Source of the DNA: a virus | Direction: 5' to 3' (one strand) | Length of the DNA stretch: 47,247 nucleotides | Virus record (IMG/VR): IMGVR_UViG_3300034025_000072 | Location: 1-47,247 of that record | Shown: piece after piece, positions 1-47,247 of the stretch | How positions within the stretch are numbered: the first letter of the stretch is position 1 | How the letters are laid out: the number at the start of each line of letters is the position of its first letter | Program-made: the position numbers and the translations under genes | The notes under the pieces: generated by a model | The model's input: the letters and a program-made list of their open reading frames with translations, nothing else | Told to the model about the DNA's origin: nothing | Database searches by the model: none

Positions 1-127
1 GAATTCGGGCGAATCTCGTTGTCGAGCGGCTTGAGCGAGTCGGCGTCGGTCGAGGTCATGTTCACGCCACCCTGCTCCGACTGGATACGAGTCTCGGCCG
101 GGGGCGTACCATCCACGTTCTGATTGT
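1..127. repeat. Left copy of the 127-bp terminal overlap, identical to 47121..47247. It closes the contig into a 47120-bp circle or permuted unit.
   Basis: Read directly: gaattcgggcgaatctcg...ccacgttctgattgt occurs at both ends. The repeat lies inside an ORF that continues across the junction. Confidence 0.95.
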
Positions 128-164
128 GCCCGGCTTGACGAGCTGCGAGTGCACCAAAATCCAT
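1..164 (-). CDS. 5' part of the junction-spanning gene; the rest is 46712..47120. The full product is about 190 aa, a virion-module protein of unknown function (possible head decoration or accessory protein).
   Basis: The ATG at 164-162 is preceded by gaaggaag 6-8 nt upstream. The frame is continuous with ORF 46712..47236 through the repeat (MDFGALAARQAGHNQNVDGTPPAETR...). The gene lies immediately downstream of the capsid gene terminator. Confidence 0.65.
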   Translation of the reverse strand, partial: MDFGALAARQAGHNQNVDGTPPAETRIQSEQGGVNMTSTDADSLKPLDNEIRPN

Positions 165-180
165 TATATCTTCCTTCACG

Positions 181-210
181 AAAAAAGGGGAGGGAGTTGA
201 TTCCCTCCCC
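181..210 (-). terminator. Rho-independent terminator downstream of the major capsid gene
   Basis: Perfect 9-bp stem ggggaggga (187-195) / tccctcccc (202-210) with a 6-nt loop. It is followed on the minus strand by a 6-U tract (aaaaaa at 181-186), 45 nt after the capsid stop codon. Confidence 0.8.
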
Positions 211-254
211 CAGGCTGCGGAATCTGCGGAGACTCCAAACTGGTGACGAGAGTC

Positions 255-1448
255 TTAGCCCGCCGTCGACTTGACCGCCCGCGTGACGTTACGCAGGATT
301 CCCATCGTGCGCGCGCCGCCGACCTCGATGCCGGCCTCCGTAGTGATGACGCCCTCGTCGGCATCCTTACCCTGGATTCGCTTGCCGTTCTCGTCGTACC
401 CTTCCTCGTTGGTTTCGCGGAGGGTACGCTTGCGAATCGCACCGGGGTGAAGCACGTACAGCTCCTTCTGCCACACCGGATTCTCGTTCATGAGCGGGTG
501 CGTCATGAGCTTCAGCTTGCCGAACGGCGTCATGATCTCCGTCACCGAGATTCCCACCTTGGTTTCGCCGACCGAGATGTTGTAGGTGCCGTCGAGCATG
601 GTCATCTGATTCAGCACCTGCACGACCTGATCGCCGCCCATCGCCATGCGCTCGTTGGGTTGCCCCTTGATGCTGGTGGCGAAGATTCGACGAATGAAGT
701 CCTCGAAGTCCACGCGCGAGTAGTCGCCGGGAGTCCCGCCGGTCGCAACCGACTCGACGACGCCGCCGTACTTCTCGACCTGGGCCACGATTCCGTCGGT
801 CATACGGAACTGCTTGTTGTTGTAGGTGCCGACGTGACTCCGACCCCAGACGAACGCGCGCTCCATATCCTCGGCGTGGAAGGAAGCGCAGTCCTTCTTG
901 TTCCGAGCCAGCTTGTTGCCAGTGCGAGTCGCGACCGCCTTGGCCGTGCCGGTGATCGCCCACGAGTTGCGGAAAATCTGCACGTAGTTGAATCGCGGCG
1001 CACCCTGCTGGACCTTGGCAACGGGCATTCCCGAGCCTTCCTCGTGCGCGTTACCGATCGCCTGAAAGTGCATGTCCGCCGTAACAGCCGTGATGGCCGT
1101 GCCGCCGAGTCCACGAACGACCGTGAGCTGATTCGCATTGGTGCCCGCGACGAGAACGTGCTCGCCGGTTTCCTCGATCATGGCAACGGTGCCCGGCACG
1201 TAATACGAGGCATCATCGAGCGTCAGAGTCGTGGTCGTGCCACCACCCGTCAGCGTCGAGCGGCCCGACTGATGCGAGTCCTCGAACCACGTGAACACCG
1301 TATCGGCGGCCGCGGCCTTGTTCATGCCGGAGGACAGCGCGAGGAAAAGCGCGGTGCCCGTCGGCTGCATACGCAGAATCACAGAGGAGAAGTCGCCGAC
1401 TCGGTCCCCCACGATGTTCTGGTTCGAAGCGAAGATACCCTGAATCAT
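255..1448 (-). CDS. Major capsid protein (HK97-fold type, podovirus-like)
   Basis: 397-aa ORF directly after the scaffold-like gene and before a strong terminator. RBS gagggag lies upstream. Size, position and sequence character (e.g. FEDFIRRIF...ERMAMGGDQVVQVLNQM) fit capsid proteins. The family call is from recall and was not searched. Confidence 0.8.
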   Translation of the reverse strand: MIQGIFASNQNIVGDRVGDFSSVILRMQPTGTALFLALSSGMNKAAAADTVFTWFEDSHQSGRSTLTGGGTTTTLTLDDASYYVPGTVAMIEETGEHVLVAGTNANQLTVVRGLGGTAITAVTADMHFQAIGNAHEEGSGMPVAKVQQGAPRFNYVQIFRNSWAITGTAKAVATRTGNKLARNKKDCASFHAEDMERAFVWGRSHVGTYNNKQFRMTDGIVAQVEKYGGVVESVATGGTPGDYSRVDFEDFIRRIFATSIKGQPNERMAMGGDQVVQVLNQMTMLDGTYNISVGETKVGISVTEIMTPFGKLKLMTHPLMNENPVWQKELYVLHPGAIRKRTLRETNEEGYDENGKRIQGKDADEGVITTEAGIEVGGARTMGILRNVTRAVKSTAG

Positions 1449-1483
1449 TGACTTCTAACTCCCTCTTCTGTTGTGAGTCCGGA

Positions 1484-2326
1484 CTATCCGCGACCCAGCA
1501 GTTCTTCTTCCCAGTTGGTCTGACCCACCTGATTATCGCCCGCGCCGCCCGGCGGAGTCGTGATTCCGAAGTCGCTGCCCAGTCGAGTCGCCTGGAACTG
1601 TAGCATCTGCTTCGTCATCGCAATCGCTTCCGGTCGCTTGCCCTTGGTCAGCTTGAGAGCCTGCACCATGAGTCCGTCGACGACAGGCTTGATGCCGGCC
1701 TTGGGGTCCCCGTAGCTGGGAATCTCGCGGGCCAGATCAGTCTCCGTATCGCGCTGCCCGAGTCGCCCCTCGATCATGGACTGGAACTTCTGCTCCAATT
1801 CCGTACCGTGGCGCTGCATGAGCTGCGCGGCCATTACGACGGCTTGCCGAGTCACCTCACGACCGAACGTGGTCATGTTGTTGTTGAAGGTGGTCGAATC
1901 GCCGTTGTTCATAGCCTCGACGGCTTCCGGTGTAAAGACTCCTTGCTGGCCGAAGGTCATGGAGTTCAGGGCGTTCGCGAAGGCATTGCCGCCACCGTTG
2001 CCATCCTGATTCCCCGGAGGATTCGTAGTGACGGAACCACCTTGATTCCCGGAACCACTCTCTTCCGCCTCGGGCTCATTCCAAAATGCCGCCGGATCGA
2101 AACCGCCGCCACTGTTATTTCCCGGATTCCCGGCATTGCCCGTGTCCGAGCCATTATTACCGCCGTTACCCCCGCCGTTATTGCCACCCCCGTTGGAGTC
2201 GCCGCCAGTGCCGCCGGTGTCCTGATGCCCATGCGCGCCGTCTGGGTCACGCATGGGATGCCCATGCTTGCCGAGTCGAACGCTGGGCCGATAGCCGGTG
2301 GAAGCCAGAAGCTGATACTTACGCAT
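1484..2326 (-). CDS. Putative scaffolding protein
   Basis: 280-aa ORF between the portal-side genes and the capsid gene, with strong RBS aaggaagga. The N-terminal half is Gly/Asn-rich low complexity and the C-terminal half looks helical. The call rests on position. Confidence 0.6.
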   Translation of the reverse strand: MRKYQLLASTGYRPSVRLGKHGHPMRDPDGAHGHQDTGGTGGDSNGGGNNGGGNGGNNGSDTGNAGNPGNNSGGGFDPAAFWNEPEAEESGSGNQGGSVTTNPPGNQDGNGGGNAFANALNSMTFGQQGVFTPEAVEAMNNGDSTTFNNNMTTFGREVTRQAVVMAAQLMQRHGTELEQKFQSMIEGRLGQRDTETDLAREIPSYGDPKAGIKPVVDGLMVQALKLTKGKRPEAIAMTKQMLQFQATRLGSDFGITTPPGGAGDNQVGQTNWEEELLGRG

Positions 2327-2327
2327 G

Positions 2328-2576
2328 TTACGAGTCCTTCCTTAGTTCGTCAGATAGCGCCTGTAGCGCGAGGAGACCATGATTCTGGCTACGATAATTC
2401 AGAATCCTGGCGGTTAACGTAGCCGGGTCCTCATCAACTGCCCCCGCGGCAACTGACTCAAATCCGGCTGCGATCTGTAGAGGGATGACCCCGGACAAGC
2501 CGAGCATCTTGATTCCTTCAACCGCAAGTATGCGACGTTCAGGATCAAGCTCCCTAAGAAACGATTTGTCGATCAC
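2328..2576 (-). CDS. Hypothetical small head-module protein (82 aa)
   Basis: The GTG start overlaps the portal stop (GTGA), and the stop lies 1 nt before the scaffold start, a tight translational-coupling arrangement. Confidence 0.6.
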   Translation of the reverse strand: MIDKSFLRELDPERRILAVEGIKMLGLSGVIPLQIAAGFESVAAGAVDEDPATLTARILNYRSQNHGLLALQALSDELRKDS

Positions 2577-6110: not shown

Positions 6111-6331
6111 TACCTTTTCGTCTTACCCTGCAAGCCCAACATGAGTCGTTCGATGAACCCCAAAGGAGGTTCGGGCGGAGCCTTGTTTTGCTGCTGTTGC
6201 ATCGCCGCGCTCTTGGCTGCGTTGGCCCGAGTCGTGGTTGTGTTCCGTCGCAGGGATTCACTACGCTGACGATAGAACGCCACCATGGCTTCCTCTTGCG
6301 GGGTGAGTGGCTTGTTGTTCGGATTCGACAT
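6110..6331 (-). CDS. Hypothetical protein (73 aa from the ATG at 6331)
   Basis: The start lies 1 nt after the upstream stop, and the stop overlaps the terL ATG (TAATG). The longer ORF-track start at 6406 would overlap the upstream gene. Confidence 0.5.
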   Translation of the reverse strand: MSNPNNKPLTPQEEAMVAFYRQRSESLRRNTTTTRANAAKSAAMQQQQNKAPPEPPLGFIERLMLGLQGKTKR

Positions 6332-6332
6332 G

Positions 6333-6581: not shown

Positions 6582-6679
6582 TAGCCTTACTCCTCGGCGG
6601 GATTCACTCTGCGGGTTTGATTCCTAGTCTGGTTCTGGCTGTTACGCGAGACCGTCCTTGGCTCCTTCGGAGCGTTGCG

Positions 6680-7324: not shown

Positions 7325-7934
7325 GGGATTCGCCTTTCCATTTACCTACTGTTCTACGCGATACGAGTCTGGTTAGCAAGGGGCTTGCCGCCGTAAGTTC
7401 GCGTAATCGGCTGAGGTTAGCGCGAGCCCTCTTGTTCCTACGGGAAGGAATCGTGCGAAACCCCTCTTGGCGCGCGGGATGTCTCCGCATTGCGGGAGTC
7501 GTTTTGTTTTCCGAATTTTTTGGTGGGGCACGCGGGACTCATATTAAGCCGGTTGCCATCGGGCTACGTATGGGGGGTAGTACCCCCGGCCTTCGGAATC
7601 TGAGGCTGGCTGTGTATTGGCTCGCGATTGCCTTCAGCTCCACAGACGATTCGATGCCCGCCGGAACCATGAGGATCAGTGATGTGAGTCAAGCCTGCCA
7701 CTCCCCCCACTTGCAAACTAACGCATCGCTTGCGATTCCTTTCAAAGCAACGCAGGCATTAACCATACCTGTTGAGTCGAGGCGTCATGTCTGCGCAGAA
7801 TCCCACAACGCCTCGCAGAGTCATTGAAAAGAAATCAATTGTGCGACTAGCACTCAACTCTACTAAAATCTGCGTAGCGTAGCGAAGCAGATTTTTTCGG
7901 GTATGGTTAACAAAGGTTAATGAGTCGCGGGCAT
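7325..7934. other. Long non-coding region upstream of the late operon. It may hold late promoter(s), a packaging site or a small RNA.
   Basis: About 610 nt without a convincing ORF; the track ORFs here have implausible composition and no RBS. The region contains several hairpins and palindromes (7572-7587 and 7865-7897; the 11-nt inverted repeat ttaaccatacc at 7759-7769 / ggtatggttaa at 7901-7911). Confidence 0.5.
7865..7897 (+). terminator. Hairpin with flanking A/T tracts (possible bidirectional terminator or RNA 3' end)
   Basis: Stem aaaatctgc (7865-7873) pairs with gcagatttt (7887-7895) across a 13-nt loop, and the T run extends to 7897. No annotated plus-strand gene ends here. Confidence 0.3.
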
Positions 7935-7968
7935 AAAAAAAACCCCCGCAACACAATGGCTGCGGGGG
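7935..7968 (-). terminator. Rho-independent terminator of the leftward early unit
   Basis: Stem cccccgca (7943-7950) / tgcggggg (7961-7968) with a 10-nt loop, followed on the minus strand by 8 U (aaaaaaaa at 7935-7942). It lies 22 nt after the stop of 7990..8952. Confidence 0.85.
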
Positions 7969-7989
7969 TCGAGTCGTTCAGAAGGAGGG

Positions 7990-8952
7990 TTAGGCGGCGG
8001 GCGCATCCTCCGTGGCCGTGGCGGGCGTCGAGTCCTCGGCGGTCAAGTCGGCCGTCAAATCATCGAGCGACAAATCGCCGTCGTCATCCTCGGTCTCGCT
8101 GACCTTCAAGGTCTGCTGATCGCGAGTCGCAAGCCACTTGTCGAAAATGGCAGCGTCGGCTCCCTTGTGCTTGGCGAGAATCTGCCCGAAGCGAAGGGCG
8201 GTGACGAACAGCGATTCGCGCGCCTTGCCTTCGCCGTCCGTGCCACGATCTTCGAGCGCAGGGAAATACTCGCTGGCGTAAGCCTTCGACTCCATCGCCT
8301 TTTTGAGGTCGCTCTTGATAAGGCGATTCTTGAGCCAAATCGGAGCCTTCTCGCCCATCTTCTTGTTGATGGTCTGATAGAGGTCGTTGAACGTGTCCAT
8401 GATTCCGCCCGCATCACGCGAGGACTCGATGAACGCTCCGACCGTGCGCGGCATCTGTTCGATGGCGGTCGCGATATTCTCCGCGTCACGCAACGGACGA
8501 ACCGCAACGTGATTCAGTTCCTTGTCCAGAACCTTGACGGTCCACGCCTTGCCCGCGGACTCGGGAAGGGCGTTCCAGTCGTCGGCGCTCATACCCAGAA
8601 TCGCCGCGATGGTGGGGACGGGGGTGACGACGATCGCCTTGATCGTGGTGGGCTCCTTCTTGCCGCCGACGGTGCGCGGGACATTTTTGAGCACCGCGAC
8701 TCGGACTCGCATTTCCTCCGTGTAAACCTCGGGGTCATATTCGCCCGAATCGTTCACGGCGTTGAGCGCGAAAGGCTGATCGTTGAAGTCGGAGAAGTCG
8801 GAGGCGCATTTCGCCAAGTACGCGGTCGCCTCGTCGGGAGTCGAAAAGGTGCGATACCCGGTCATGCCTTCGAGCGTCGTCACCGTCTTGGCGGGCTTCG
8901 AGTCGCTGGCGGCGGCGGTGGCGTTCGGGGCGGATACGGTGGTGTCGGTCAT
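7990..8952 (-). CDS. Hypothetical protein with an acidic C-terminal tail (320 aa)
   Basis: ATG at 8952 (MTDTTV...) with RBS aaagga 9 nt upstream. The ORF-track start at 9138 adds an implausible N-terminus. The C-terminus is ETEDDDGDLSLDDLTADLTAEDS... The gene has its own strong terminator. Confidence 0.7.
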   Translation of the reverse strand: MTDTTVSAPNATAAASDSKPAKTVTTLEGMTGYRTFSTPDEATAYLAKCASDFSDFNDQPFALNAVNDSGEYDPEVYTEEMRVRVAVLKNVPRTVGGKKEPTTIKAIVVTPVPTIAAILGMSADDWNALPESAGKAWTVKVLDKELNHVAVRPLRDAENIATAIEQMPRTVGAFIESSRDAGGIMDTFNDLYQTINKKMGEKAPIWLKNRLIKSDLKKAMESKAYASEYFPALEDRGTDGEGKARESLFVTALRFGQILAKHKGADAAIFDKWLATRDQQTLKVSETEDDDGDLSLDDLTADLTAEDSTPATATEDAPAA

Positions 8953-9162
8953 TGAGTCATTCCTTTGCAAAGGCGGCGTTGATGCCGCATTCAACGTCTC
9001 ACAAGCGAGGGCGTGAGACAAGCCCTTATCGCGCGAACCGGAATTGGTCGGCACGAATTGCGATGTCAGCGGCGCGATTATTCTGCGCCACGTCCAAAAG
9101 GGATTGCAACCTATTCGGTCGCGGGGTCGAACGCCCATACACGGGAGTCAGCGTCGGGCGGG

Positions 9163-9369
9163 TCAACGGTCGGACTCCGCAAGGCGCTTGCTAGCGGCAG
9201 TGATCCGGTAAGAGTAGGTTGCCACGCGATCAGAGAGTCCGGCGATGCGGTCATAGTCCACCACGGACGCGGGACGAACGGCATGAGTCGCAACCATGCA
9301 CTCCACTGCGCGGGAGAGTTGAGCAAGGTTGGATTCCAGCGCGGCGAGGTCGGAGGGAGAAGGCTTCAT
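9163..9369 (-). CDS. Hypothetical small protein (68 aa)
   Basis: ATG at 9369 (MKPSPSDLAALESNLAQL...) with RBS aaagga 8 nt upstream. This is the first leftward ORF next to the divergent control region. Confidence 0.5.
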   Translation of the reverse strand: MKPSPSDLAALESNLAQLSRAVECMVATHAVRPASVVDYDRIAGLSDRVATYSYRITAASKRLAESDR

Positions 9370-10131
9370 CAGATGGTCCTTTCGTTCGCGGGATCGTGCA
9401 TCGCGTCCCGAAGCCAACAAATAGGCGAGTCGAACGAATCCGGCAAGCGACCAACCGGCAGGATGCGACGAACCGAAGGATTCCTGCGACGAACCGAAAG
9501 TTGGGAGTCAATGGGTAGCAAATCAGGACTCGTTAAGTTGATCTGAATCAACAATTACAAACGTAATCGCCAAAAGCTCAAGCGGCAGAGTCAGCCGATA
9601 CCACGCGAGGCAAAAACCAAAAGAGAGAAAGTAGGTTGATTCCAGACGTTTCATAATTACCAACCTAACGCTAACCTAATTCCCTCTTGCAAGATTCAAC
9701 GCGACCGCTTCCCCCTCCCCGGTGCCGGGTGTGTGATGCCGGGAGTCGGGGTGTGAGTCGGTAGCTGGGTTGAGTCATAGGTGTAGTGGGTAGTAGTGAC
9801 TCCCCGTTCTTAGTTATATAGCTGATTTTTGGCGAGGGGGGTCAGAATAGAACTCTCCCAAGAGCTTGACTCTACCCACAACGACTCACAGACAACACTC
9901 CACCAACCCAAGGCGGTAGGGAGTCACCCACACAAGCAACGTGCATGTTGTAAGAGGGAAGTAGATTCGGGTGATGATATATGAAGGGGAAGGTAAGGTA
10001 AAGTTGGAATTACCGTTGATTACAATAGTTGGTAATGTCACTATGAAACTGCCCTAACTGACTGTAACACTCCGAAGGAGTCATCGGTTGGTTCACGGGC
10101 CAATGCGCTTACGAGTAGGAGTCAAAGTAAC
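9370..10131. promoter_or_regulatory. Divergent intergenic control region between the leftward and rightward early genes; candidate for early promoters and a replication origin
   Basis: About 760 nt without ORFs separates oppositely oriented genes. A G/T-rich stretch (9720-9805) is followed by an AT-rich core (9806-9835) and then a C/A-rich stretch (9860-9945). GAGTC/GACTC sites are clustered, and direct repeats lie at 9464-9498. Confidence 0.5.
9464..9498. repeat. Two direct copies of tgcgacgaaccgaa spaced 21 bp apart (possible operator or binding site)
   Basis: Read directly: 9464-9477 and 9485-9498 are identical 14-mers, about 95-130 nt upstream of the 68-aa leftward ORF. Confidence 0.6.
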
Positions 10132-11960: not shown

Positions 11961-12875
11961 ATGACCACCATGACCACCGACTCGTTCAATCCCAAACTCG
12001 CCAGCCTTGTGACGTACATGCAGAATGAGATGGGAATCAACCCGCTCCGTCTGTATTGCCAAATCACTGGCAAGCCCATTGGTCGAATCGAAGCTGATGA
12101 GCTTACCCCATTCCTCAACAACAACCATGACGTTGACTCGATCGCCGATGATCTTTTTGTGCGAATCATTGCGTCGATGCGCCCGTCCATTCATTGGAAC
12201 GTGATGCGCGAGTCAACGCTTGAGGCCATGGCTAAGGCTCGCCCGATCGAGACACTTGCCTACCTCATGAATCGTCTGTTCCAGCCCACCGAGTTTTACA
12301 AGCTGCCGTTGACTCGCCGCCTCGACGATCAGCATCAGCGAATCAAACTCTACGCCTTCCTCGAAACCATGGATACGGCTAAGCTCGACTCGCTTTACAC
12401 CATGCTGATTGAAGTCGATGCCAAGATGAATCTTTCGCAGCAGCAGATCGACCTGCGTTGCGTTGACTTCATGCTCTTCCTTGACGAGTCGATGATTACC
12501 ATCAACCGCTGGTATCTAGATTGCATCAAGCGGTGGAATCGCACCCAGCAGCACAATGAAACGCAGGCCAATTGGTACAAGGGCAACACGGTCGCCAAGC
12601 CCGCATTCTTCCGCGACTTCATCGAAGCCAAGCCCGAATCCAAAACCGCCAAATCCAAGCGAGTCGCCAAAGCTAAGGACATGGAGCTGGACGCACTCTT
12701 TGACGCGGTGATGCAGCAGGCCGAGTCGGCAGACCCCATTCAGGCTGAAGTTGAGGCAATCGCTCCGACTCCTACCGCTTCGCCAGCCCCAACCTTCATC
12801 CGCAATCCCAAACCGACTCCCAAGCCCACCAGCTTTGCCGGTCGTGGCGCTCCCTCGTTCCTGAAAGGACGCTGA
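11961..12875 (+). CDS. Hypothetical protein (304 aa)
   Basis: ATG start with RBS aaagga. A proline-rich C-terminal linker ends in APSFLKGR. Confidence 0.65.
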   Translation: MTTMTTDSFNPKLASLVTYMQNEMGINPLRLYCQITGKPIGRIEADELTPFLNNNHDVDSIADDLFVRIIASMRPSIHWNVMRESTLEAMAKARPIETLAYLMNRLFQPTEFYKLPLTRRLDDQHQRIKLYAFLETMDTAKLDSLYTMLIEVDAKMNLSQQQIDLRCVDFMLFLDESMITINRWYLDCIKRWNRTQQHNETQANWYKGNTVAKPAFFRDFIEAKPESKTAKSKRVAKAKDMELDALFDAVMQQAESADPIQAEVEAIAPTPTASPAPTFIRNPKPTPKPTSFAGRGAPSFLKGR

Positions 12876-16042: not shown

Positions 16043-16160
16043 TTATGGTGGACCGCGAGTGAGTCCGGGCTGCCTAATAGTTTGCATGTTTCCTTTGATG
16101 ATACTCATCAATGTGATTCCGTGGGGGGTGCGGTTCATCCTCGATTTGCTGGGATTTTAG
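16035..16160 (+). CDS. Micro-ORF encoding a 41-aa membrane peptide (MRDYGGPRVSPGCLIVCMFPLMILINVIPWGVRFILDLLGF)
   Basis: The ATG overlaps the end of the upstream gene by 8 nt, and the stop lies 1 nt before the next ATG. The core is hydrophobic. It lies close to the endolysin gene, so it may be a holin or antiholin. Confidence 0.4.
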   Translation: MRDYGGPRVSPGCLIVCMFPLMILINVIPWGVRFILDLLGF

Positions 16161-16161
16161 C

Positions 16162-16404
16162 ATGGAACAAAGAGCAAGGGAGTGGGCACAGAGTCGCCAG
16201 ATCGACAGCCTAAACTTCAAGATGACGATTATGCTCGTTCTCGTCATTATCGGAATCATGAGCAATGTTGCTCGCACCATCAACGACATAAAGGATGATA
16301 CCAAGCAGGCACGAATCGTCTACCTAGACAAGCGCATCATAGAGCTTGAACAGCGCATCGAGGACTATGAAACTGGTGTCCCGCGCCCTCAACAGAAGGA
16401 CTAA
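16162..16404 (+). CDS. Small membrane protein with one transmembrane segment and a coiled-coil tail (holin- or spanin-like candidate), 80 aa
   Basis: The transmembrane segment is MTIMLVLVIIGIMSNVA, followed by charged helical sequence. The gene is AT-richer than its neighbours and lies near the endolysin gene. Confidence 0.5.
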   Translation: MEQRAREWAQSRQIDSLNFKMTIMLVLVIIGIMSNVARTINDIKDDTKQARIVYLDKRIIELEQRIEDYETGVPRPQQKD

Positions 16405-16411
16405 ACGAGTC

Positions 16412-16762
16412 ATGGACCTGAACCAATACGCGCGTCTCTGCCACGAGGCCAATCAAAAGTGGTGGGTGAATCCCACTACCGGCGAGCGTATCGAGCGCAA
16501 CAAGGGTGAGCAGATCGCGCTGATTCACTCCGAGTTGAGTGAGGCGCTAGAAGGAGTCCGCAAGAATAAGGCAGACGATCACCTCCCGCACCGTCGCAGC
16601 GAAGAAGTCGAAATGGCCGACGCCATCATCCGAATCCTCGACTACTGCGCCGGGCACGGCCTCGATTTGCAGGGGGCCTTCGACGAGAAGATGGCGTACA
16701 ATGCGACTCGCGCTGACCACAAGCTCGAAGCCCGCATGGGCAACTTCGGCAAGAAGTTTTGA
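16412..16762 (+). CDS. MazG-like nucleoside triphosphate pyrophosphohydrolase (116 aa)
   Basis: Internal ATG at 16412. It carries the acidic metal-binding helix pattern LIHSELSEALEGVRK...EEVEMADAIIRILDY typical of small phage MazG-type NTP-PPases. Confidence 0.7.
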   Translation: MDLNQYARLCHEANQKWWVNPTTGERIERNKGEQIALIHSELSEALEGVRKNKADDHLPHRRSEEVEMADAIIRILDYCAGHGLDLQGAFDEKMAYNATRADHKLEARMGNFGKKF

Positions 16763-17717: not shown

Positions 17718-18044
17718 ATGAGACGACTCAATAACCTACCACTAGACCGAACCAAGGCAGCGATGGCGCAATTCATGCCGTTCGTCAAGCAGGGTGAACG
17801 AGTCATGTTCCTCGTTCCGGCGGGCGACGGGTTCAACATGGTCCAGCGTGTGCGCGTGGCGATGAGTCGCGCTAGGAAGGAACTACGGCGTAAGCAGAAG
17901 CCGATGATTCACTTCCGTCTGCACCACTCGATCATGCCTTGGACCGAGGCTGGCAAGCGCCATGATGCTGTGATTCTCTGGTCCACCCGCGACGAGACTC
18001 ACGAGGTCAACGAACTTCTAGAGGATGTATTCCGCAATGTCTAA
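17718..18044 (+). CDS. Hypothetical protein (108 aa)
   Basis: ATG-initiated ORF with protein-like composition. The next gene overlaps its end. Confidence 0.55.
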   Translation: MRRLNNLPLDRTKAAMAQFMPFVKQGERVMFLVPAGDGFNMVQRVRVAMSRARKELRRKQKPMIHFRLHHSIMPWTEAGKRHDAVILWSTRDETHEVNELLEDVFRNV

Positions 18045-18786
18045 GCTCGCCGAAATGCTGGCCAAGCAGAACGCCAAACCAGCGACTCCACCCGCCGAGG
18101 CACCCAAGCCTGCCGGACTCGCATTCCTGAACAAGAAAAAGGAAGAGGGAGCTACAGTATCTACCCCCGAGCCCGAAGGGCGAGGGCCAAGTGTGAATGA
18201 AACGGAGACCATCACGACTCCTAATTCCAACGCCGCTCCCAAAGCTGGACTCGCGTTCCTCAAGCAGCGGTCCGTCGCTGCCCCCGCGCCCCCTCCCCCT
18301 CCGGTTGCGACTCAACCCGACCCTACCCCGGCCGATGCCACGCGCGAGGTTGACCTTGACTCGCTCATGAACGACACCTCCGGCGGCACCGCTGCGAACA
18401 CGCTGGCATCTGGTCGTTCGAGTCGTTTCGCTGACGAGGTTCCGGCGCAGGGTCCGGTGCGCGAGTTGCCCGAGGACCTCGACAAGCAACAGCGCCACTT
18501 CATCGAGTCGCTGGACAGCATCTACCGAATCGTGCATAAGCCTGATCTGCTCGGCAACGTCGTCAAGTCGATCATGATGGAGCTGTCGCGCAGCCCCGAG
18601 TATCGCAAGATGATTCAGCCGATGGACGTGCATACCATGATTAAGGGTATGAGGGATTCGATGGGCATGGCGCGGATCAAGAAGGAAGAGTCCAAAGCCA
18701 AGCGGGCTGGCGGTGCCAAGAAGAAAACCAAAGAGATCGACGGGCTGGACGGCCTGCTCGACTCGCTCGATGCGGACTTCTCGTGA
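18037..18786 (+). CDS. Hypothetical protein with a disordered Pro-rich N-terminal half and an acidic C-terminus (249 aa)
   Basis: ATG at 18037 (gagga upstream) is preferred over 18025. It contains two copies of the GLAFL(N/K)(K/Q)(K/R) motif and ends in DGLLDSLDADFS. Confidence 0.6.
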   Translation: MSKLAEMLAKQNAKPATPPAEAPKPAGLAFLNKKKEEGATVSTPEPEGRGPSVNETETITTPNSNAAPKAGLAFLKQRSVAAPAPPPPPVATQPDPTPADATREVDLDSLMNDTSGGTAANTLASGRSSRFADEVPAQGPVRELPEDLDKQQRHFIESLDSIYRIVHKPDLLGNVVKSIMMELSRSPEYRKMIQPMDVHTMIKGMRDSMGMARIKKEESKAKRAGGAKKKTKEIDGLDGLLDSLDADFS

Positions 18787-21684: not shown

Positions 21685-21714
21685 CGTAGCAACAACACAA
21701 CGAAGGAATGATTC

Positions 21715-22170
21715 ATGTCTGACTTTTCGCTCGCCGATCTCGCCGATCTGGACGTTACCGACATTCAGGAGATTCGATTCGAGACGCTCCCGCAGGGCAT
21801 CTTCGATTTCGTGGTGAAGAATCCCAAGCTCGACGAGGGCACGAACAAGGATCAGGAGAAGATTTTCATCTTCACTTGCGACTGCAACGTGGAGGAAGTC
21901 GTGGCGGTTCTCGACTCCAACTCGGACTCGGACAAGCTGGTCGGCAAGACCTACAAGCAGCGCCAGAACATCGACCCGTCGAATCCCGAGGAAGGCATCG
22001 GCCGCATTCGCGCGTTCGGTTCGGACATCGGCATCGACTCGACCGGCAAGCTCGGCGACGTGGTGGCGCGTATGGACGAGACGCGATTCCGCAGCAAGAT
22101 CGTTCACCAGAAGGACCGGGTCGATCCGTCGATCATCTACGCTCGGTTGCGCTTCGACAACAAGAAGTAA
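21715..22170 (+). CDS. DUF669-like protein, putative ssDNA-binding partner of the Sak4-like ATPase (151 aa)
   Basis: RBS gaaggaa. The N-terminal pattern FETLPQGIFDFVVKNPKLDEG...IFIF resembles DUF669 proteins, which commonly follow AAA_24 genes. This is recall-based. Confidence 0.45.
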   Translation: MSDFSLADLADLDVTDIQEIRFETLPQGIFDFVVKNPKLDEGTNKDQEKIFIFTCDCNVEEVVAVLDSNSDSDKLVGKTYKQRQNIDPSNPEEGIGRIRAFGSDIGIDSTGKLGDVVARMDETRFRSKIVHQKDRVDPSIIYARLRFDNKK

Positions 22171-22180
22171 CAGCGAGCTG

Positions 22181-22244
22181 GTGAGGGAGTGCGATTCCCT
22201 CACTTGCCCGGTAGCGAGCCAGCAAAGACTCCCTTCCGGGCAAG
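22181..22244 (+). promoter_or_regulatory. Two adjacent RNA hairpins without a U tract (possible processing or stability element)
   Basis: Hairpin 1 pairs gtgaggga (22181-22188) with tccctcac (22196-22203). Hairpin 2 pairs cttgcccgg (22203-22211) with ccgggcaag (22236-22244). Confidence 0.5.
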
Positions 22245-22268
22245 TGCCCACAACCTAAGGAGAGAATT

Positions 22269-22427
22269 ATGAGCACCACCGAAGGCGCGATTCCCGACGA
22301 GAACGTCACCGAGGTCGAAGGCGGCACGGTCGTCAATGCGGACCAGGATGACTCGACGGACACCGAGACGGAGGAGGTTGTCGAAGCCGAGGATACCGAC
22401 GAGTTGGACGCCGACAGCGCCCAGTAA
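22269..22427 (+). CDS. Hyper-acidic 52-aa protein (MSTTEGAIPDENVTEVEGGTVVNADQDDSTDTETEEVVEAEDTDELDADSAQ)
   Basis: ATG at 22269 with RBS aaggagag 6 nt upstream and TAA at 22425. It has 19 Asp/Glu and no Lys/Arg/His. It is not in the ORF track because it is shorter than 60 aa. Confidence 0.6.
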   Translation: MSTTEGAIPDENVTEVEGGTVVNADQDDSTDTETEEVVEAEDTDELDADSAQ

Positions 22428-22446
22428 CTTTCGATCGCCGGCAATG

Positions 22447-22474
22447 GGTAGGTAGGGTTGATTCCCTACCTACC
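22447..22474 (+). promoter_or_regulatory. Strong 11-bp hairpin downstream of the acidic ORF
   Basis: Stem ggtaggtaggg (22447-22457) pairs with ccctacctacc (22464-22474) across the loop ttgatt. No U tract follows. It lies 20 nt upstream of the next start codon. Confidence 0.6.
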
Positions 22475-22493
22475 TACTCTTGAAGGAAAGTTG

Positions 22494-22697
22494 ATGGCAG
22501 AGGTTAAGCTGCACAATGGAATGGTTGAAGGCGGTGAGCAGCCTCCGATTCCGCTGACGCGCTTCAATGCCACCATCTGGATCGAGACCAGCGCACAGGT
22601 TGAGATGACTCCCGAGCTGGTCATGCAAATCGAGAACGCAATTTGGGGATGCCTCCCCGCCGCCGAGGATGGCGATGTAGGATTCAGTTTGGTATGA
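22494..22697 (+). CDS. Hypothetical protein (67 aa)
   Basis: ATG at 22494 with RBS gaaggaaag. The stop overlaps the polymerase ATG (ATGA). Confidence 0.55.
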   Translation: MAEVKLHNGMVEGGEQPPIPLTRFNATIWIETSAQVEMTPELVMQIENAIWGCLPAAEDGDVGFSLV

Positions 22698-25545: not shown

Positions 25546-25578
25546 GGGGTGAGTCGTCATTGGCTCACCCCTACTTTT
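25546..25578 (+). terminator. Rho-independent terminator or attenuator
   Basis: Stem ggggtgag (25546-25553) pairs with ctcacccc (25564-25571) across a 10-nt loop, followed by tactttt. It makes the ORF-track start at 25549 for the next gene unlikely. Confidence 0.5.
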
Positions 25579-25593
25579 GCTAGGAATCGCGTA

Positions 25594-26232
25594 GTGAGTG
25601 ACAAGGCTCAATACATCATTGGCATGAACGGCCCGCCCAAAGTAGGTAAGGATACCGTCGGCCTTTGCGTTCGGCATCTGTTGGATTCGGTCACGAGTCT
25701 TTCGACGCACGTGGACTGGTTGGCCCGCCCGATGCGGCAGATGGCCATGGGACTCGTGGGCCTGAACCCGAACGACTTCAACCTCTACAACGTCGAGAAG
25801 GACAAGCCGAACCAGTTGCTTCGTCGGGCCATTCGCAGCAGCAACACACAAGTCGAAGCCAACGATTCGTTGCGAGAGCTGATGATCGCCACCAGCGAGG
25901 AACTTATCAAGCCCCGCTATGGCTACGACTTCTGGGGCCGCAAGTTGATCTACGATCAGAAGTGGCTCGGACTCGGTTATCCCGGCATTTTGATCGTTCC
26001 TGACGTTGGCTTCTCGCAGGAGGTTGATGCCTTCGACGAGCTGGAAGGAGTCAAAACACTGATCGTACAGTTGGAGCGAAACGGCGTGGGCTGGGCAAAC
26101 GACTCGCGTGACTACTGCTTCGGCAAGAACACGGAGCGGTTCGGCAACAACGGAACTCCGATGGATTGCGCGCGGCAGATTGTCACGCATATGACTCGGG
26201 AACTTGGCTGGTCATTCGACGAGGTAGCGTGA
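25594..26232 (+). CDS. Deoxynucleoside monophosphate kinase-like P-loop protein (212 aa)
   Basis: The GTG at 25594 lies after the terminator. The P-loop GMNGPPKVGKDT resembles T4 gp1-type dNMP kinases (..SGKDT). This is a recall-based assignment. Confidence 0.5.
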   Translation: MSDKAQYIIGMNGPPKVGKDTVGLCVRHLLDSVTSLSTHVDWLARPMRQMAMGLVGLNPNDFNLYNVEKDKPNQLLRRAIRSSNTQVEANDSLRELMIATSEELIKPRYGYDFWGRKLIYDQKWLGLGYPGILIVPDVGFSQEVDAFDELEGVKTLIVQLERNGVGWANDSRDYCFGKNTERFGNNGTPMDCARQIVTHMTRELGWSFDEVA

Positions 26233-26235: not shown

Positions 26236-27564
26236 GTGGATGACTTCCAGTTCAACACGGCGTACCTGAACGACTATCTTGCTATGGTTGAGGACAGCGA
26301 GTCACCTCGCTTGTTCCATATCTGGCAGGCGGTGTTCAACATTAGCTGCTCGTTGGGCCGACGGTGCTGGTTTCCGTTCGGCCCAATGCAGCTGTACCCG
26401 AATCAATACGTTCTGCTCGTCGGCACTCCGGGGACTCGTAAGTCTACCGCAGCGTCGATGGGCAAACGAATCCTTAAGGCCAACACGGGAGTGCGAATGG
26501 CGCCCCAAGATACCGCAGGGCAGCGGCAAGGTTTGGTGACAGCCATGCAAGGCGAATCCCAAGCCGCCGAGTTTCTTAATGCCGCGAGGGTTGGGGGCAA
26601 CAATGGTGACTCGCTAAGCCTCGCAGACATAGCCGAGATTACAAACGATCCCGCCGAGGAAACGGCACAGTTTGTAAGCGAGGCCGACAAGCATCATATG
26701 GCCGTCATTAGCGGTGAGTTTTCCCGATTCATTGGGCAAAACAATATCAGCATGTTGGACTTTTTGGCGACGATGTGGGACGGGGATGATTATGACTATC
26801 AGCTCAAAACCTCCAAGATCACGCTCAAGAATCCACTTCTTAACGTCTTGGGTTGCACGACTCCCACTTCGATCAGCCACTCCATGCCTCCTGCCGCCGG
26901 GGGCCAAGGATTCCTGTCCCGAGTCATTCTTGTCTACGGGGCAAAGAAGTACAAGTCAGTCCCACGTCCCGGAGTCCCACCGCAGGATATGGTGGACCGA
27001 GTTGGGGATCGAATCAAGTCCTGTTACTACGATTTGGCAGGACCATTCGACGAGACTCCTCAAGCCAGAGCCTATAGCGAGGGACTCTACGACTACAAGA
27101 TTGATATCGCTGATTCGCGATTTGGCTACTATGCCGAGCGACGGTATACTCACCTCATTAAACTTGCCACCTGTTTGGCAGCAGCGGGAGGTCGCCGAAT
27201 CGTTGAGAAGGACGATTTTGAGGAGGCTCACCGAATCCTTCGAGCCACCGAACAAGGAATGCCCGACGCGCTAGGCGAGTTTGGTATGAATCCTTTAGCG
27301 GTGGTCAAGCAGGAGATTCTTGAAGAGCTTCGTGGCGCTTTGGGTCCCATTCCCATGAACGCCCTAATTTCTATGTTCACCCGCGACGCTCGGAGTCACG
27401 ACGTTGCCGAGGTGATTAACGACCTTAAGCGAGCCGGCCATATTCGTATGATACAAGGTACGGATGGCGGATTCAGCGTATCGGCCAACTTCAACAAGGC
27501 GTCTGTCGAGCAAGGAATGATGCGGATTTTGGCTAAGTTGGATAAAGTTAATGGCGATTCCTAA
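26236..27564 (+). CDS. DUF3987-like P-loop ATPase (putative replicative helicase or loader), 442 aa
   Basis: Walker A is LLVGTPGTRKST. The segments LDFLATMWDGDDYDY and GGQGFLSRVILVY match the ..lWdG.. and GFl.R patterns I recall for DUF3987. Confidence 0.6.
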   Translation: MDDFQFNTAYLNDYLAMVEDSESPRLFHIWQAVFNISCSLGRRCWFPFGPMQLYPNQYVLLVGTPGTRKSTAASMGKRILKANTGVRMAPQDTAGQRQGLVTAMQGESQAAEFLNAARVGGNNGDSLSLADIAEITNDPAEETAQFVSEADKHHMAVISGEFSRFIGQNNISMLDFLATMWDGDDYDYQLKTSKITLKNPLLNVLGCTTPTSISHSMPPAAGGQGFLSRVILVYGAKKYKSVPRPGVPPQDMVDRVGDRIKSCYYDLAGPFDETPQARAYSEGLYDYKIDIADSRFGYYAERRYTHLIKLATCLAAAGGRRIVEKDDFEEAHRILRATEQGMPDALGEFGMNPLAVVKQEILEELRGALGPIPMNALISMFTRDARSHDVAEVINDLKRAGHIRMIQGTDGGFSVSANFNKASVEQGMMRILAKLDKVNGDS

Positions 27565-27913
27565 GTATGGCCATACTCACGGGCATGAACCTTGCGCTTG
27601 TTGCAACAAGAATCCTAGAGCTTTACCTCGACCATATTGCCGTGATTGCGAACGACTCAAGCGGGCGGCAAATAATCGGGGTCTAAGTGTTCGTCAGTAT
27701 CGTGAATATTTTGACGAACAAAACGGCGAGTGCTACTTGTGTTTTAATCTTGCGACGGATTTAGACCACGACCATAGCACTGGAATCATAAGGAGGGCAT
27801 TATGTAGAAGCTGTAATCGAATCATCGGGAATCTTGAAAACGGTACAAACCGGCAGCCCCGATCAGAGAAGTTTCACAATTACATTAAGACATGCGGAGA
27901 CAGGTTATTATGA
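27551..27913 (+). CDS. Endonuclease VII-family (T4 gp49-like, HNH-related) nuclease, 120 aa
   Basis: The motif is CYLCFNLATDLDHDHSTGIIRRALCRSCNRIIGNLE, plus an N-terminal Cys cluster. The gene is visibly lower in GC than both flanks and overlaps both neighbours. Confidence 0.8.
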   Translation: MAIPKYGHTHGHEPCACCNKNPRALPRPYCRDCERLKRAANNRGLSVRQYREYFDEQNGECYLCFNLATDLDHDHSTGIIRRALCRSCNRIIGNLENGTNRQPRSEKFHNYIKTCGDRLL

Positions 27914-41030: not shown

Positions 41031-41033
41031 GGC

Positions 41034-41498: not shown

Positions 41499-41509
41499 CT
41501 TACGACTCC

Positions 41510-42142: not shown

Positions 42143-42154
42143 AGTTATTCAGCT

Positions 42155-44535: not shown

Positions 44536-45614
44536 TACACGCCCGGCTCTTCCGGCATCACCAACTCATAGCCCATCTTCAGATTGTTGACTTTGGCCTT
44601 GGTCCAGGGACTCCCGTCTGGGGCCGTCAATGCCAGGGTACGATTCCACGTGTAATCTGTGGTTAGATTGTAGCCCGGCGTTGCAGCATCCAGCCCATCG
44701 AGGTTGAGCAGGTTACGAATCGTTCGCGTACCACTGTCCTCCTTGCGGGCCGCCGTGATTAGGCCAACCGCATGAATCGTCACGGGATTAACATCGACTT
44801 GAGTCATGTTGAACAAATCCCGTGCACCCTCAACCGCAGAGAAGTTGTAGGTAGCATCGTTATCCGTCGAGTCGTCGTCGATGTTACCAAAGTTGCTCGG
44901 GCCAGCCGATCTTTCAAAATCCACGTCAAAGTCCGAGACGGCTTCCAGCAGAAGAATACGTGATTCTCCGAGTCGAGTTGCTTGGTTGCTCATGCAATAC
45001 ATGTCGTCGTACTGCTGAATTCCCGAGTTGGCGATGACCGTCAAGCAGAATCGAGTGATGTTGCCATCCTCTTGCGACTTGGTATCGCCCACGAACTCGA
45101 ACTGTTGCTCGCCGTCTATATAGACTCGGATGTACCCGTTAGCATCTGCGATCAACAACTCGACCTCGATGTAATGCCAAGTGTTGGATGCCATGAGTCG
45201 AGGGCAAACACCCTTGACTTGCCCGGCATCATTCTTACCCAGACTCGCCTTGACCTCGCCGTACCCGGTGACGTTGAGCGAGAACAGCGTCTGCTCGGCG
45301 CTATTGTGGAGTCGAATGATGTCAGGCCCCGGATTTATGTTTGACCTTGAGCCCACGTTGGGGAGTCGGCAAGCGAATCCGAACGCCTTTTGGGCAGACG
45401 CCGGTACGATTCGCGCGCTACGACCTTCACCGAGCGAGTTAGGTGGGCCAAAGAGTTGGTAGGCTTTGCCGGGTGCGAATCGTCCGTCCACCAATCCTCG
45501 TGGCTGCTCTTCCTGCGAGCCAAAAGTAATCCACGTTGAGTGAACTCCGACTCCATTGGTGTTGAGACCATTGGGATAATAGTCGAATCCCTCAACGAAG
45601 TCGAACGTACCCAT
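44535..45614 (-). CDS. Virion structural protein, beta-sandwich-like (359 aa)
   Basis: The ATG directly abuts the upstream stop (TAAATG). It sits in the tail block. Function unknown. Confidence 0.55.
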   Translation of the reverse strand: MGTFDFVEGFDYYPNGLNTNGVGVHSTWITFGSQEEQPRGLVDGRFAPGKAYQLFGPPNSLGEGRSARIVPASAQKAFGFACRLPNVGSRSNINPGPDIIRLHNSAEQTLFSLNVTGYGEVKASLGKNDAGQVKGVCPRLMASNTWHYIEVELLIADANGYIRVYIDGEQQFEFVGDTKSQEDGNITRFCLTVIANSGIQQYDDMYCMSNQATRLGESRILLLEAVSDFDVDFERSAGPSNFGNIDDDSTDNDATYNFSAVEGARDLFNMTQVDVNPVTIHAVGLITAARKEDSGTRTIRNLLNLDGLDAATPGYNLTTDYTWNRTLALTAPDGSPWTKAKVNNLKMGYELVMPEEPGV

Positions 45615-45812
45615 TTATACCCCCATCAACCTACGATGCGCCCGCATTTGCCGCGCTACCTTGTCACTAACGATTCGCTCCGCAGTTGGTCTGTCAACCC
45701 GCTGCTTCCTCATTGTCATTTCGACCAGCATTTGATCGAGTCGAGCGTTGAGGCTTTCTACGCGTCGGGCTGACGTCGAAAAGCTCCGCGGGAATATCGA
45801 GCGAAGATTCAT
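45615..45812 (-). CDS. Small ORF (65 aa as drawn) whose C-terminal two thirds look coding. It may be the downstream frame of a frame-switching gene.
   Basis: Its stop abuts the next ATG. It overlaps ORF 45694..45990 by 119 nt in another frame. Its N-terminal third (MNLRSIFPRSFSTSA) looks non-native. Confidence 0.35.
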   Translation of the reverse strand: MNLRSIFPRSFSTSARRVESLNARLDQMLVEMTMRKQRVDRPTAERIVSDKVARQMRAHRRLMGV

Positions 45813-45990
45813 CTCGTTCTACCATCCTTATTTTGGTGAAGTACTGGATGATGTGAATCACCAGATCGCTGTACCGTTTTCTTTCCCGGACCTCTCGGAA
45901 CATCATAAAGATGAAGAGAATCCACCCGAGTCCGAAAATACCCCCCTCACCTACCAGCTTAGCTACAGATGCCGCACTGATTCCGTCCAT
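45694..45990 (-). CDS. Small membrane protein (98 aa as drawn; one transmembrane segment, GGIFGLGWILFIFMMF)
   Basis: The ATG lies 5 nt after the upstream stop. The N-terminal ~75 aa look native, and the remainder loses third-position GC by hand count. Confidence 0.45.
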   Translation of the reverse strand: MDGISAASVAKLVGEGGIFGLGWILFIFMMFREVRERKRYSDLVIHIIQYFTKIRMVERDESSLDIPAELFDVSPTRRKPQRSTRSNAGRNDNEEAAG

Positions 45991-45995
45991 CCCGT

Positions 45996-46688
45996 TCAGC
46001 CTCCAAGGGTCGGCAACTCGCTCAACCAGACTCCCTGACGCAGCTGCTGATACAGACTGTACGCGGTACGCTGGCGATCTTGGTCGCTGACTCGTTTGTA
46101 TATCTTGGCTCGCAGACCTTCAAGAAGGACGTCGGACCATCGCATAATCAGCCAATTGGTGCAAGCGAGTCGCGCCAACTCTCTAGCTTCTTCGGTGACG
46201 ACATCCGCCCGGTAGGTCCAACCCAACTCATCGTCGAAACTGGCCGGACGAATCGCCGGGGGATGATACTTGTGGCGGCGAGGGAACTCATGATATCCCA
46301 ATTGAATTCGAGACCCTGCTGCTCCGAAGCCACTGAAGGCATACGAGCCACCGACTGAATAATGGAAAAGATCGCCCACGCTGATTCCGCGGCCAGGCAC
46401 CTTTTCTTTCGACCAGTTGTCGCCGTCACTCCGATAAACATCGGGGTAGCGCACTGCACTGAGTCGTTGAAAGATAGCAGGGTTGGGAATATCCCACGTC
46501 GCCGACTCACTCAACGCGATGAACTGGAACTCCTTGAAGTTGCTCCGGTACAGCAGCGGCGCATTCAGATCAGGACGGAAGTGCATCTCCCGAATCGTCT
46601 GATTGGCGTAAGTGACGATCTCCGCCAGCATATCAGGGCGCTTGCACTCCTGAATCGCCGCATCGATCAACTGGCTGAACGTAGTCAT
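45996..46688 (-). CDS. Putative head-to-tail adaptor / gatekeeper-type protein (230 aa)
   Basis: ATG at 46688 with RBS ggaaggg. It is the second gene downstream of the capsid gene. The call rests on position only. Confidence 0.35.
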   Translation of the reverse strand: MTTFSQLIDAAIQECKRPDMLAEIVTYANQTIREMHFRPDLNAPLLYRSNFKEFQFIALSESATWDIPNPAIFQRLSAVRYPDVYRSDGDNWSKEKVPGRGISVGDLFHYSVGGSYAFSGFGAAGSRIQLGYHEFPRRHKYHPPAIRPASFDDELGWTYRADVVTEEARELARLACTNWLIMRWSDVLLEGLRAKIYKRVSDQDRQRTAYSLYQQLRQGVWLSELPTLGG

Positions 46689-46711
46689 TCCCAACCCTTC
46701 CGTCGAGTCGA

Positions 46712-47247
46712 TTACTGCTGCTTGACTTCGACGGCGTCGTTGTTGTCGCCCTGAGTCTTGGCGTGACCGATATCCTTGTCGCCGACCAGCCGGGCCTCGC
46801 CGATGGTCATGGACTGCCGACCTACCGAGGAATCGGTGGCGCCGGTGATGCTCGGCTCGGGGACGCGAACCAGCAGCTCGGCTGCCTTGACATCGATCTT
46901 CTTGATCTTCGACTTCTCGCCCGCCGGGAGTCGATCGAGCATCTTCTCGAACTCCTCGACCTCATCGCCTTCAAGCGACAGAATCGAGTTGGCGAACTGG
47001 AAGCGGCCCAGTTTGAATCGCGAGATCGGGTGCGACGAGAAGATGGTCTTGCCACCATTCAGCGACTCGCCCGTGACGATCTTGGCCGGCGCGACGGAGA
47101 GGGGCTCGGTCGCATTGGGCGAATTCGGGCGAATCTCGTTGTCGAGCGGCTTGAGCGAGTCGGCGTCGGTCGAGGTCATGTTCACGCCACCCTGCTCCGA
47201 CTGGATACGAGTCTCGGCCGGGGGCGTACCATCCACGTTCTGATTGT
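46712..47247 (-). CDS. 3' portion of the junction-spanning gene, truncated by the linear window end. Its 5' end continues at 128..164.
   Basis: The reading frame is open to the window edge. The stop is at 46712-46714. Joining through the 127-bp overlap gives one 190-aa ORF with a good RBS at 165-180. Confidence 0.65.
   Translation of the reverse strand, partial: NQNVDGTPPAETRIQSEQGGVNMTSTDADSLKPLDNEIRPNSPNATEPLSVAPAKIVTGESLNGGKTIFSSHPISRFKLGRFQFANSILSLEGDEVEEFEKMLDRLPAGEKSKIKKIDVKAAELLVRVPEPSITGATDSSVGRQSMTIGEARLVGDKDIGHAKTQGDNNDAVEVKQQ
47121..47247. repeat. Right copy of the 127-bp terminal overlap (identical to 1..127)
   Basis: Read directly; exact identity over 127 nt. Confidence 0.95.

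Follow-up and report, generated by a model that had tools for sequence, protein, structure and literature searches.

An evenly spaced, genome-wide GANTC lattice in one clade of tailed phages

Short palindromes are known to be lost from phage genomes under restriction pressure; restriction-site avoidance has been described in general terms (PMC6286503), and the pentamer GANTC in particular is depleted in some pelagiphages (PMC9516812). The closest described system built on this motif is that of the methyltransferase CcrM in Alphaproteobacteria, in which GANTC is at least twofold depleted in the host DNA and concentrated in intergenic regulatory regions (PMC3973325). The tailed phage IMGVR_UViG_3300034025_000072, whose complete, circularly assembled genome of 47,247 bp is the window analyzed here (i.e., the whole stretch of DNA at its full length), shares with that system the identical motif, its free central base and a double-stranded site of the kind read by a protein dimer. 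Unlike in the hosts, its GANTC is about fivefold enriched, as dense within genes as between them and evenly spaced, and the genome has no recognizable methyltransferase gene. We refer to this array of sites as the lattice. The CcrM-mimicking enzymes of PhiLM21 (p027) and its relatives illustrate that GANTC methylation matters to phages of Alphaproteobacteria, but those phages carry an enzyme with an NPPY/F/W motif beside their replication genes (PMC5537653), whereas the phage described here multiplies the substrate instead. Restriction-site avoidance is likewise a genome-wide selection on short palindromes, and it is seen in this genome for six-base palindromes, CCWGG and CTNAG; for GANTC, however, the sign is reversed (observed/expected ratio [O/E] of 3.0 to 4.8), the spacing is regular, and the relatives outside the clade avoid the motif in the normal way.

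Other precedents come from motifs kept dense and relatively even by selection or molecular drive, such as the DNA uptake sequences of Pasteurellaceae and Neisseria, and Chi. These are 8 to 12 nt long, occur about once per kilobase or less, are asymmetric or oriented, belong to cellular genomes and have a known machinery; their density is kept because the machine must meet the motif within a limited distance. The lattice shares with them the over-representation and the even spacing, but it has only four specified bases, recurs about every 55 bp, is palindromic and is viral, and no candidate for a cognate reading machine came out of domain scans, two structure models or a comparison of gene contents. 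Protein p6 of phage phi29 coats the genome by recognizing DNA bendability, with no defined motif; a regular short-period protein array over a whole phage chromosome would be the point in common, but no such protein was found here. Phages with hypermodified bases (7-deazaguanine or derivatives of 5-hydroxymethyldeoxyuridine) differ in being generally insensitive to restriction and in having DpdA/TGT, dUMP hydroxymethylase or 5-HMUDK-type pathway genes, of which the domain scans detected none here. In the full-text literature searched, phages with an accumulation or an even spacing of GANTC are nowhere described. We regard the lattice as new in kind, and no known phage mechanism explains the pattern. 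We give slightly less than an even chance to the general proposal that this clade-wide, regular array of palindromes serves as an epigenetic or protein-binding coat or as a mark of self-identity, which, if true, would mean that phage genomes can be organized on a new principle.

Excess and even spacing of GANTC

The exact count gave 856 GANTC sites between positions 1 and 47247, one per 55 bp, with an unbiased central base (A 204, C 219, G 224, T 209). This is 4.8 times the 178 sites expected from independent bases and 3.1 times the 274 expected from the frequencies of the GA and TC dinucleotides. By O/E, the four GANTC pentamers occupy ranks 1 to 4 among all 1,024 pentamers, and among the 256 patterns of the form XYNZW the motif stands at 3.12 and the second-ranked pattern at 1.54. 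The excess is confined to the one-base spacer, GA and TC separated by no base or by 2 to 12 bases giving ratios of 0.64 to 1.11, and the 12 one-mismatch variants of GANTC are all depleted (0.57 to 0.87). Within the 41.6 kb of coding DNA, 737 sites were found vs 244 ± 11 after shuffling synonymous codons with the protein sequences and the overall codon usage kept (3.0-fold; z = 45), and all three reading frames are used (155, 256 and 326 sites). The 5.7 kb of non-coding DNA hold 115 sites, one per 50 bp, while each of the 38 genes falls between one per 42 and one per 78 bp, and the density along the genome is uniform (14 to 22 sites per kb). The excess is real, specific and no coding artifact. 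It had been noticed in a reading of the letters alone, which claimed a several-fold excess in coding and non-coding DNA, with all four central bases present and codon usage unable to account for it. The 64 sites counted by hand in seven stretches for this original prediction were 65 on exact counting (12, 14, 14, 8, 6, 7 and 4), and otherwise these claims stand; neither a ratio near 1 nor a comparable enrichment of unrelated pentamers was found.

A by-product without function at the DNA level, due to composition, codon or amino acid usage, mutational or repair bias, or an RNA signal, is barely credible after these counts, which already largely refute it. GA and TC are each enriched about 1.3-fold and the codons CGA and TCG are common, as such an origin would have it, but the excess survives both the dinucleotide and the codon-shuffle nulls and is equally strong in non-coding DNA, and the codon biases are more likely to be a consequence of the lattice. 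Besides, a mutational drive cannot yield the under-dispersed spacing described below, and an RNA signal would need no dyad and would not reach in intergenic DNA the density found in genes.

The bases next to the sites carry little information. A at position −1 and T at position +1 have frequencies of 0.12 to 0.13 vs 0.21 to 0.22, in coding and non-coding DNA alike. At the non-coding sites, where the flanks are otherwise uninformative, nothing but this avoidance of A at −1 persists; the reader may prefer other bases there, or AG/CT may be scarce in general. We discarded a longer recognition motif, as the preference for C at −1 and G at +1 vanishes at the non-coding sites and is, for that reason, probably derived from codons. 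That GANTC is part of a longer repeat was also ruled out, the flanks being without information and the three long non-coding regions scanned containing no repeat families.

The gaps between consecutive sites have a mean of 55 bp, a median of 53 bp, a mode of 40 to 80 bp and a maximum of 191 bp, with a coefficient of variation (CV) of 0.48. For 492 four-base patterns occurring at least 150 times, the median CV was 1.04 and the lowest after that of GANTC was 0.84, leaving GANTC as the lone outlier among patterns of similar frequency. Both tails of the distribution are cut: there are 77 gaps below 20 bp vs 260 expected, and four above 130 bp vs about 81 expected. Consistently low values were obtained for the variance/mean of site counts in bins of 500 to 2000 bp (0.17 to 0.26). 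At 5 to 19 bp from a site, a second one is found about once per 167 bp (77 gaps, 856 sites), matching the neutral rate of about one per 170 bp obtained from the codon shuffle, i.e., close pairs are not repelled, merely not favored. The spacing gave no clear peak near 10.5 bp that would indicate helical phasing. Selection maintains the lattice, and what it acts on is local density or coverage, not particular positions. The neutrality at short range, taken together with the near absence of stretches longer than about 130 to 190 bp, suggests that each site serves some 25 to 30 bp on either side. It appears that the whole chromosome has to be covered, and the gap distribution gives a length scale for this, whoever the reader is, with about 50 to 60 bp served per site and nothing above ca. 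190 bp.

The same distances have a bearing on the idea of a sponge, in which the sites would titrate a host GANTC-binding factor (CcrM, or GcrA with RNA polymerase), either leaving the host chromosome under-methylated and so blocking the cell cycle or division, or concentrating host RNA polymerase on the phage DNA. A sponge would be the more beneficial the more of its sites can be occupied simultaneously, and sites within the footprint of a neighbor would add nothing, which predicts a neutral density at short range and the filling of longer gaps, as seen. One genome adds 856 sites, and no RNA polymerase gene was found among its open reading frames (ORFs) with the domain libraries. CcrM is reported to be limiting and restricted in the cell cycle, and its loss to lower FtsZ and MipZ (PMC3708114, PMC5172544). 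We nevertheless judge a sponge unlikely: it would be slow relative to a lytic cycle, it has no precedent, and it leaves unexplained both the strict exclusion of long gaps and the site-free promoter of one gene (see below).

Distribution, turnover and loss of the lattice

About 170 loci were retrieved from IMG/VR with the capsid, terminase and polymerase proteins as queries. Contigs with at least 46% identity in the large terminase (TerL), about 40 in number, all bear the lattice except for one lineage, and in a neighbor-joining tree of the terminase the lattice contigs make up one clade. Within it there is one site per 50 to 94 bp, O/E is 2.7 to 5.2, the maximum gap is usually 120 to 250 bp, and the CV of the gaps is mostly 0.44 to 0.65, with a few values up to 0.80. 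None of the contigs at or below 43% TerL identity has the lattice (O/E of 0 to 1.6, CV ca. 1). Some of these outgroup contigs show extreme avoidance of the very motif amassed by the focal clade, with one site in 20.6 kb (L092), none in 12.4 kb (L120), one in 11 kb (L067) and one in 5.8 kb (L060). Aeromonas phage P5 has an O/E of 0.74 and Caulobacter phage Kuura one of 0.31. Kuura and the several outgroups with no site or a single one in 11 to 21 kb agree with the earlier remark that phages normally deplete GANTC. We also considered analogous lattices of TGCA or TGNCA in outgroup contigs and rejected them, as their excess is ca. 1.9-fold under a first-order Markov null, like that of non-palindromic words, with CVs of 0.76 to 1.09. 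This is ordinary composition, and so the test can discriminate.

The number of sites per gene is nearly constant between orthologs (20/19, 32/29/34, 27/27, 44/43 and 92/86), and yet the sites themselves are no fixtures: between 11 and 59% of them fall at the same aligned position, vs 13 to 44% for control four-base patterns in orthologous genes. Where TerL identity falls to about 46%, the density is retained with only 31 of 250 sites in common. What we see is a density kept by stabilizing selection while the positions turn over continually. The approximately fivefold accumulation, the even spacing and the constant turnover imply a strong, unrecognized selective force acting on the whole chromosome. 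Three features that constrain the mechanism had escaped the original prediction: that the spacing is even, that the lattice is sharply bounded by one clade with a single loss inside it, and that individual sites turn over at constant density.

The exceptional lineage, IMGVR_UViG_3300025018_000224 (loci L050 and L110), lies inside the clade as sister to a lattice-bearing contig and has an O/E of 1.45, a CV of ca. 1 and a G+C content of 48%. Gene content could be checked over 82% of its genome. It has kept the helicase, nuclease, annealase, polymerase, primase and giant protein, a member of the family of a 320-amino-acid (aa) protein described below (hmmsearch, E = 9e-27) and the 253-aa protein encoded upstream of the nuclease (hhalign probability of 98.7%), and in the portion retrieved no widely conserved gene had been lost together with the lattice. 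Loss of the lattice without loss of genes mildly favors a reader on the side of the host, and a host switch. A second lineage, IMGVR_UViG_3300037424_002538 (L006/L042), shows a partial decay of the lattice: its sites come at one per 94 bp, and the CV is 0.75. Both the lost and the decayed lineages have a lower G+C content (48 to 50%), and both are natural controls in a search for the reader or for a host switch.

Possible readers of the motif

A dyad with a free central base suggests a symmetric reader of double-stranded DNA, whose specificity would be exactly that of the CcrM/HinfI family. No such enzyme was found in the phage. Scans of 38 main and 12 additional candidate ORFs with Pfam, PHROGs, NCBIfam and PADLOC detected no S-adenosylmethionine-dependent DNA methyltransferase domain in any of the 50, and the catalytic motif [DNS]PP[YFWH] occurs in short or out-of-frame ORFs only and in no real one. 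The absence of a methyltransferase motif noted from the translations is thus upheld, now with four libraries of hidden Markov models. A host CcrM-type N6-adenine methyltransferase then becomes the most likely and most economical reader, and we put at about 0.35, roughly one in three, the probability that the lattice is a set of targets for such an enzyme. The restriction of the excess to the one-base spacer and the unbiased center match the reported specificity of CcrM, which is high for GANTC with a minor preference at the central base (PMC3287173). The phage chromosome would carry a pair of N6-methyladenines (m6A) about every 55 bp. Such a coat might, speculatively, provide immunity to HinfI-type restriction, or it could block the loading or spreading of a host factor in need of longer unmarked stretches, for which the alphaproteobacterial silencer MucR would be a candidate, equally speculative. 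MucR shields GANTC from CcrM, and promoters under MucR repression become more active when methylation is constitutive (PMC5172544). Should the reader prove to be the CcrM of the host, the virus would be exploiting an essential cell cycle methylase of its host for protection or anti-silencing while encoding no enzyme itself.

The only lead to the host is the endolysin, and it points weakly to Alphaproteobacteria. This is the group that carries CcrM. Among the best 15 matches of the endolysin in 185,579 reference genomes (41 to 49% identity), 14 belong to Alphaproteobacteria and one to an unclassified Pseudomonadota metagenome-assembled genome; the genera include Brevundimonas, Novosphingobium, Sphingobium, Sphingomonas, Pleomorphomonas, Methylobrevis and Henriciella. 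The DNA flanking these matches has a GANTC O/E of 0.39, one site per 794 bp, in agreement with the depletion of at least twofold in CcrM-bearing Alphaproteobacteria (PMC3973325). The density in the phage is ca. 14 times that of this putative host DNA. The lattice would thus be made of a motif that is kept scarce in the DNA of the likely hosts, and restriction-site avoidance would appear here in mirror image.

Several points weigh against methylation by the host. The endolysin is similarly close (40 to 46%) to those of phages of Gammaproteobacteria, which makes the alphaproteobacterial assignment weak. We know of no phage of Alphaproteobacteria that multiplies GANTC, and Caulobacter phage Kuura depletes it. 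Other phages of Alphaproteobacteria carry a GANTC methyltransferase of their own (PMC5537653). The CcrM of Caulobacter is confined to the late cell cycle and works distributively (PMC3287173, PMC5172544), so that full methylation of some 860 sites in each of many genome copies is not assured. The benefit of dense m6A is one that we infer. Lastly, point mutations in a phage-encoded reader could also explain a loss of the lattice without visible loss of genes, and the gene comparison covered about 82% of the genome of the lattice-less lineage.

Avoidance of other palindromes bears on a further explanation, namely, a covalent modification or strand nicking of a new kind at GANTC, by a phage-encoded or virion-borne activity. 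Six-base palindromes number 403 in the genome vs 778 expected; 19 of the 64 do not occur at all, 30 reach no more than 0.25 of expectation, and CCCGGG and GGGCCC, with about 25 expected of each, are among the missing ones. Other depleted words are CCWGG (0.13 to 0.14), CTAG (0.20) and CTNAG (0.34). This is the classical signature of restriction pressure, the DNA evolving as if exposed to ordinary restriction enzymes, and having it in the same genome makes the excess of GANTC more pointed. It also argues against a base modification that protects the genome globally, and this is one reason why we find a new modification or nicking activity very unlikely. No TGT/DpdA, thymidine-hypermodification, nickase or other base-modification domain was found in the scans, the sole related match being a gene for a protein similar to deoxynucleoside monophosphate (dNMP) kinases (25549 to 26232), and a genome nicked in both strands at palindromes 55 bp apart would fall to pieces. 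On the other side, many ORFs are without an assigned function, the dNMP-kinase-like gene was detected in the lattice clade only, and distant capsid relatives of the LUZ24/PaP2 group carry sequence-specific nicks. Of the three meanings offered in the original prediction without a choice among them (a host CcrM-like enzyme, a binding array, or a modification or nicking activity), a host factor is mildly favored and a global protective modification disfavored.

The conserved site-free stretch and other genes of the phage

The long non-coding stretch at 7325 to 7989 contains 14 GANTC sites (one per 48 bp), and being site-dense while non-coding, it indicates that the lattice is independent of coding. 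The divergent non-coding region between the leftward and the rightward gene blocks (8953 to 10131) has 25 sites (one per 47 bp), all of them outside the interval from 8959 to 9144. This interval, 186 bp long and bounded by sites at 8954 and 9145, is the largest GANTC-free stretch of the genome and lies directly upstream of the gene at 7990 to 8952 (minus strand). Four relatives have their largest or joint-largest gap (180 to 217 bp) at the same place, upstream of the same gene (L001, 2498 to 2684; L007, 2790 to 2970; L015, 2380 to 2584; L016, 9777 to 9994), and it is the sole conserved GANTC-free stretch. It includes a conserved promoter-like element on the minus strand, TTGTCT (similar to TTGACA) followed by TGTGAGAC at 9003 to 8996. 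A strong terminator follows the gene at 7970 to 7941 (minus strand), and these sequence features suggest a monocistronic gene that has a promoter-like element and a terminator to itself.

The product of this gene is the 320-aa protein mentioned above. Its family has more than 140 metagenomic members, those with long contigs being on contigs of about 42 to 50 kb, and three loci retrieved around distant members (starting from two homologs) were GANTC-dense too. The protein is acidic overall and ends in an acidic tail, DDDGDLSLDDL (pattern DDDxDLSLDDL). Its AlphaFold model is confident, with a predicted local distance difference test score (pLDDT) of 87, but PDB and BFVD contained nothing that it matched. 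A role as an SSB-like or protein interaction factor is conceivable. As a reader of GANTC it is unsupported, considering its acidity, the lack of a structural match and the homolog kept in the lattice-less lineage.

The site-free stretch and its gene belong, nonetheless, to what can be said for a phage-encoded reader, that is, a protein of unrecognized fold acting as a genome coat or nucleoid protein or as a self-recognition factor, the latter telling the phage DNA, dense in GANTC, from the GANTC-poor DNA of the host so that it is spared by nucleases, replicated or packaged. The even spacing resembles a parking-type distribution, and a redundancy radius of ca. 20 to 40 bp fits the footprint of a bound protein; the sharp phylogenetic boundary of the trait coincides with one phage clade; several conserved genes detected in this clade only have no assigned function or fold, such as those of the 320-aa and 304-aa families, and the only conserved site-free stretch is at the promoter of one of them (7990 to 8952). 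The contrast in density of ca. 14-fold with the putative host DNA would suit discrimination between self and non-self. Still, no candidate has DNA-binding features, the 320-aa protein being acidic, and the 320-aa and 253-aa (18025 to 18786) families persist in the lattice-less lineage. The motif is, moreover, identical in all sampled members of the clade, where a private pair of reader and site might drift, and it coincides exactly with the specificity of a widespread host enzyme. On balance, we see a phage-encoded reader as somewhat unlikely. Were it true, the lattice would represent viral chromatin, or a means of self-recognition, of a new, sequence-directed type. Host methylation is the reading we prefer to it, and whatever weight is left beyond the five explanations considered goes to something not listed here.

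Two more proteins were examined as leads. The 304-aa protein (11961 to 12875, plus strand) is encoded immediately upstream of the RecD-like helicase gene, and by BLAST its family was found at 15 loci, in lattice-bearing relatives only and never in outgroups. Its model, also a confident one, is all-helical (pLDDT of 81) and had no match in PDB, and as a lead to the reader it was uninformative. The 253-aa protein was dropped as a gene lost with the trait once its homolog turned up in the lattice-less lineage.

The genome has a G+C content of 56.8%, and the identical sequence is found in the European Nucleotide Archive assembly ERZ27253112 as a contig of 47,261 bp. Megablast gave no close relative among cultured phages, the best capsid match at the protein level being 34% identical, and there were no members of the clade or prophages in reference genomes. 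The gene set is podovirus-like. Genes for structure and packaging include those of an SU10-type major capsid protein, the portal, the large terminase, tail fiber proteins, a protein of 1,819 aa and another of 1,025 aa with a transglycosylase domain. Replication and recombination are represented by the RecD-like helicase, a PD-(D/E)XK nuclease, a Sak4-like annealase, a family A DNA polymerase, a DUF3987 primase-helicase, the dNMP-kinase-like protein and an Rv2179c-like exonuclease, and lysis by the endolysin, of the M15 type. Neither tRNA genes nor Rfam families were found in the genome.

Four stretches, at 7325 to 7989, 8953 to 10131, 16043 to 16700 and 21685 to 22642 (0.66 to 1.18 kb), are without a convincing ORF, Rfam family or repeat family, unusually long for a phage of 47 kb, and all four have GANTC at normal density. 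A small HNH/endonuclease VII gene (27551 to 27913, plus strand) stands out by its G+C content at third codon positions (0.42 vs about 0.7 elsewhere) and has a homolog in no relative. Probably this is a mobile endonuclease of recent acquisition; even so, the gene has six GANTC sites (one per 60 bp).

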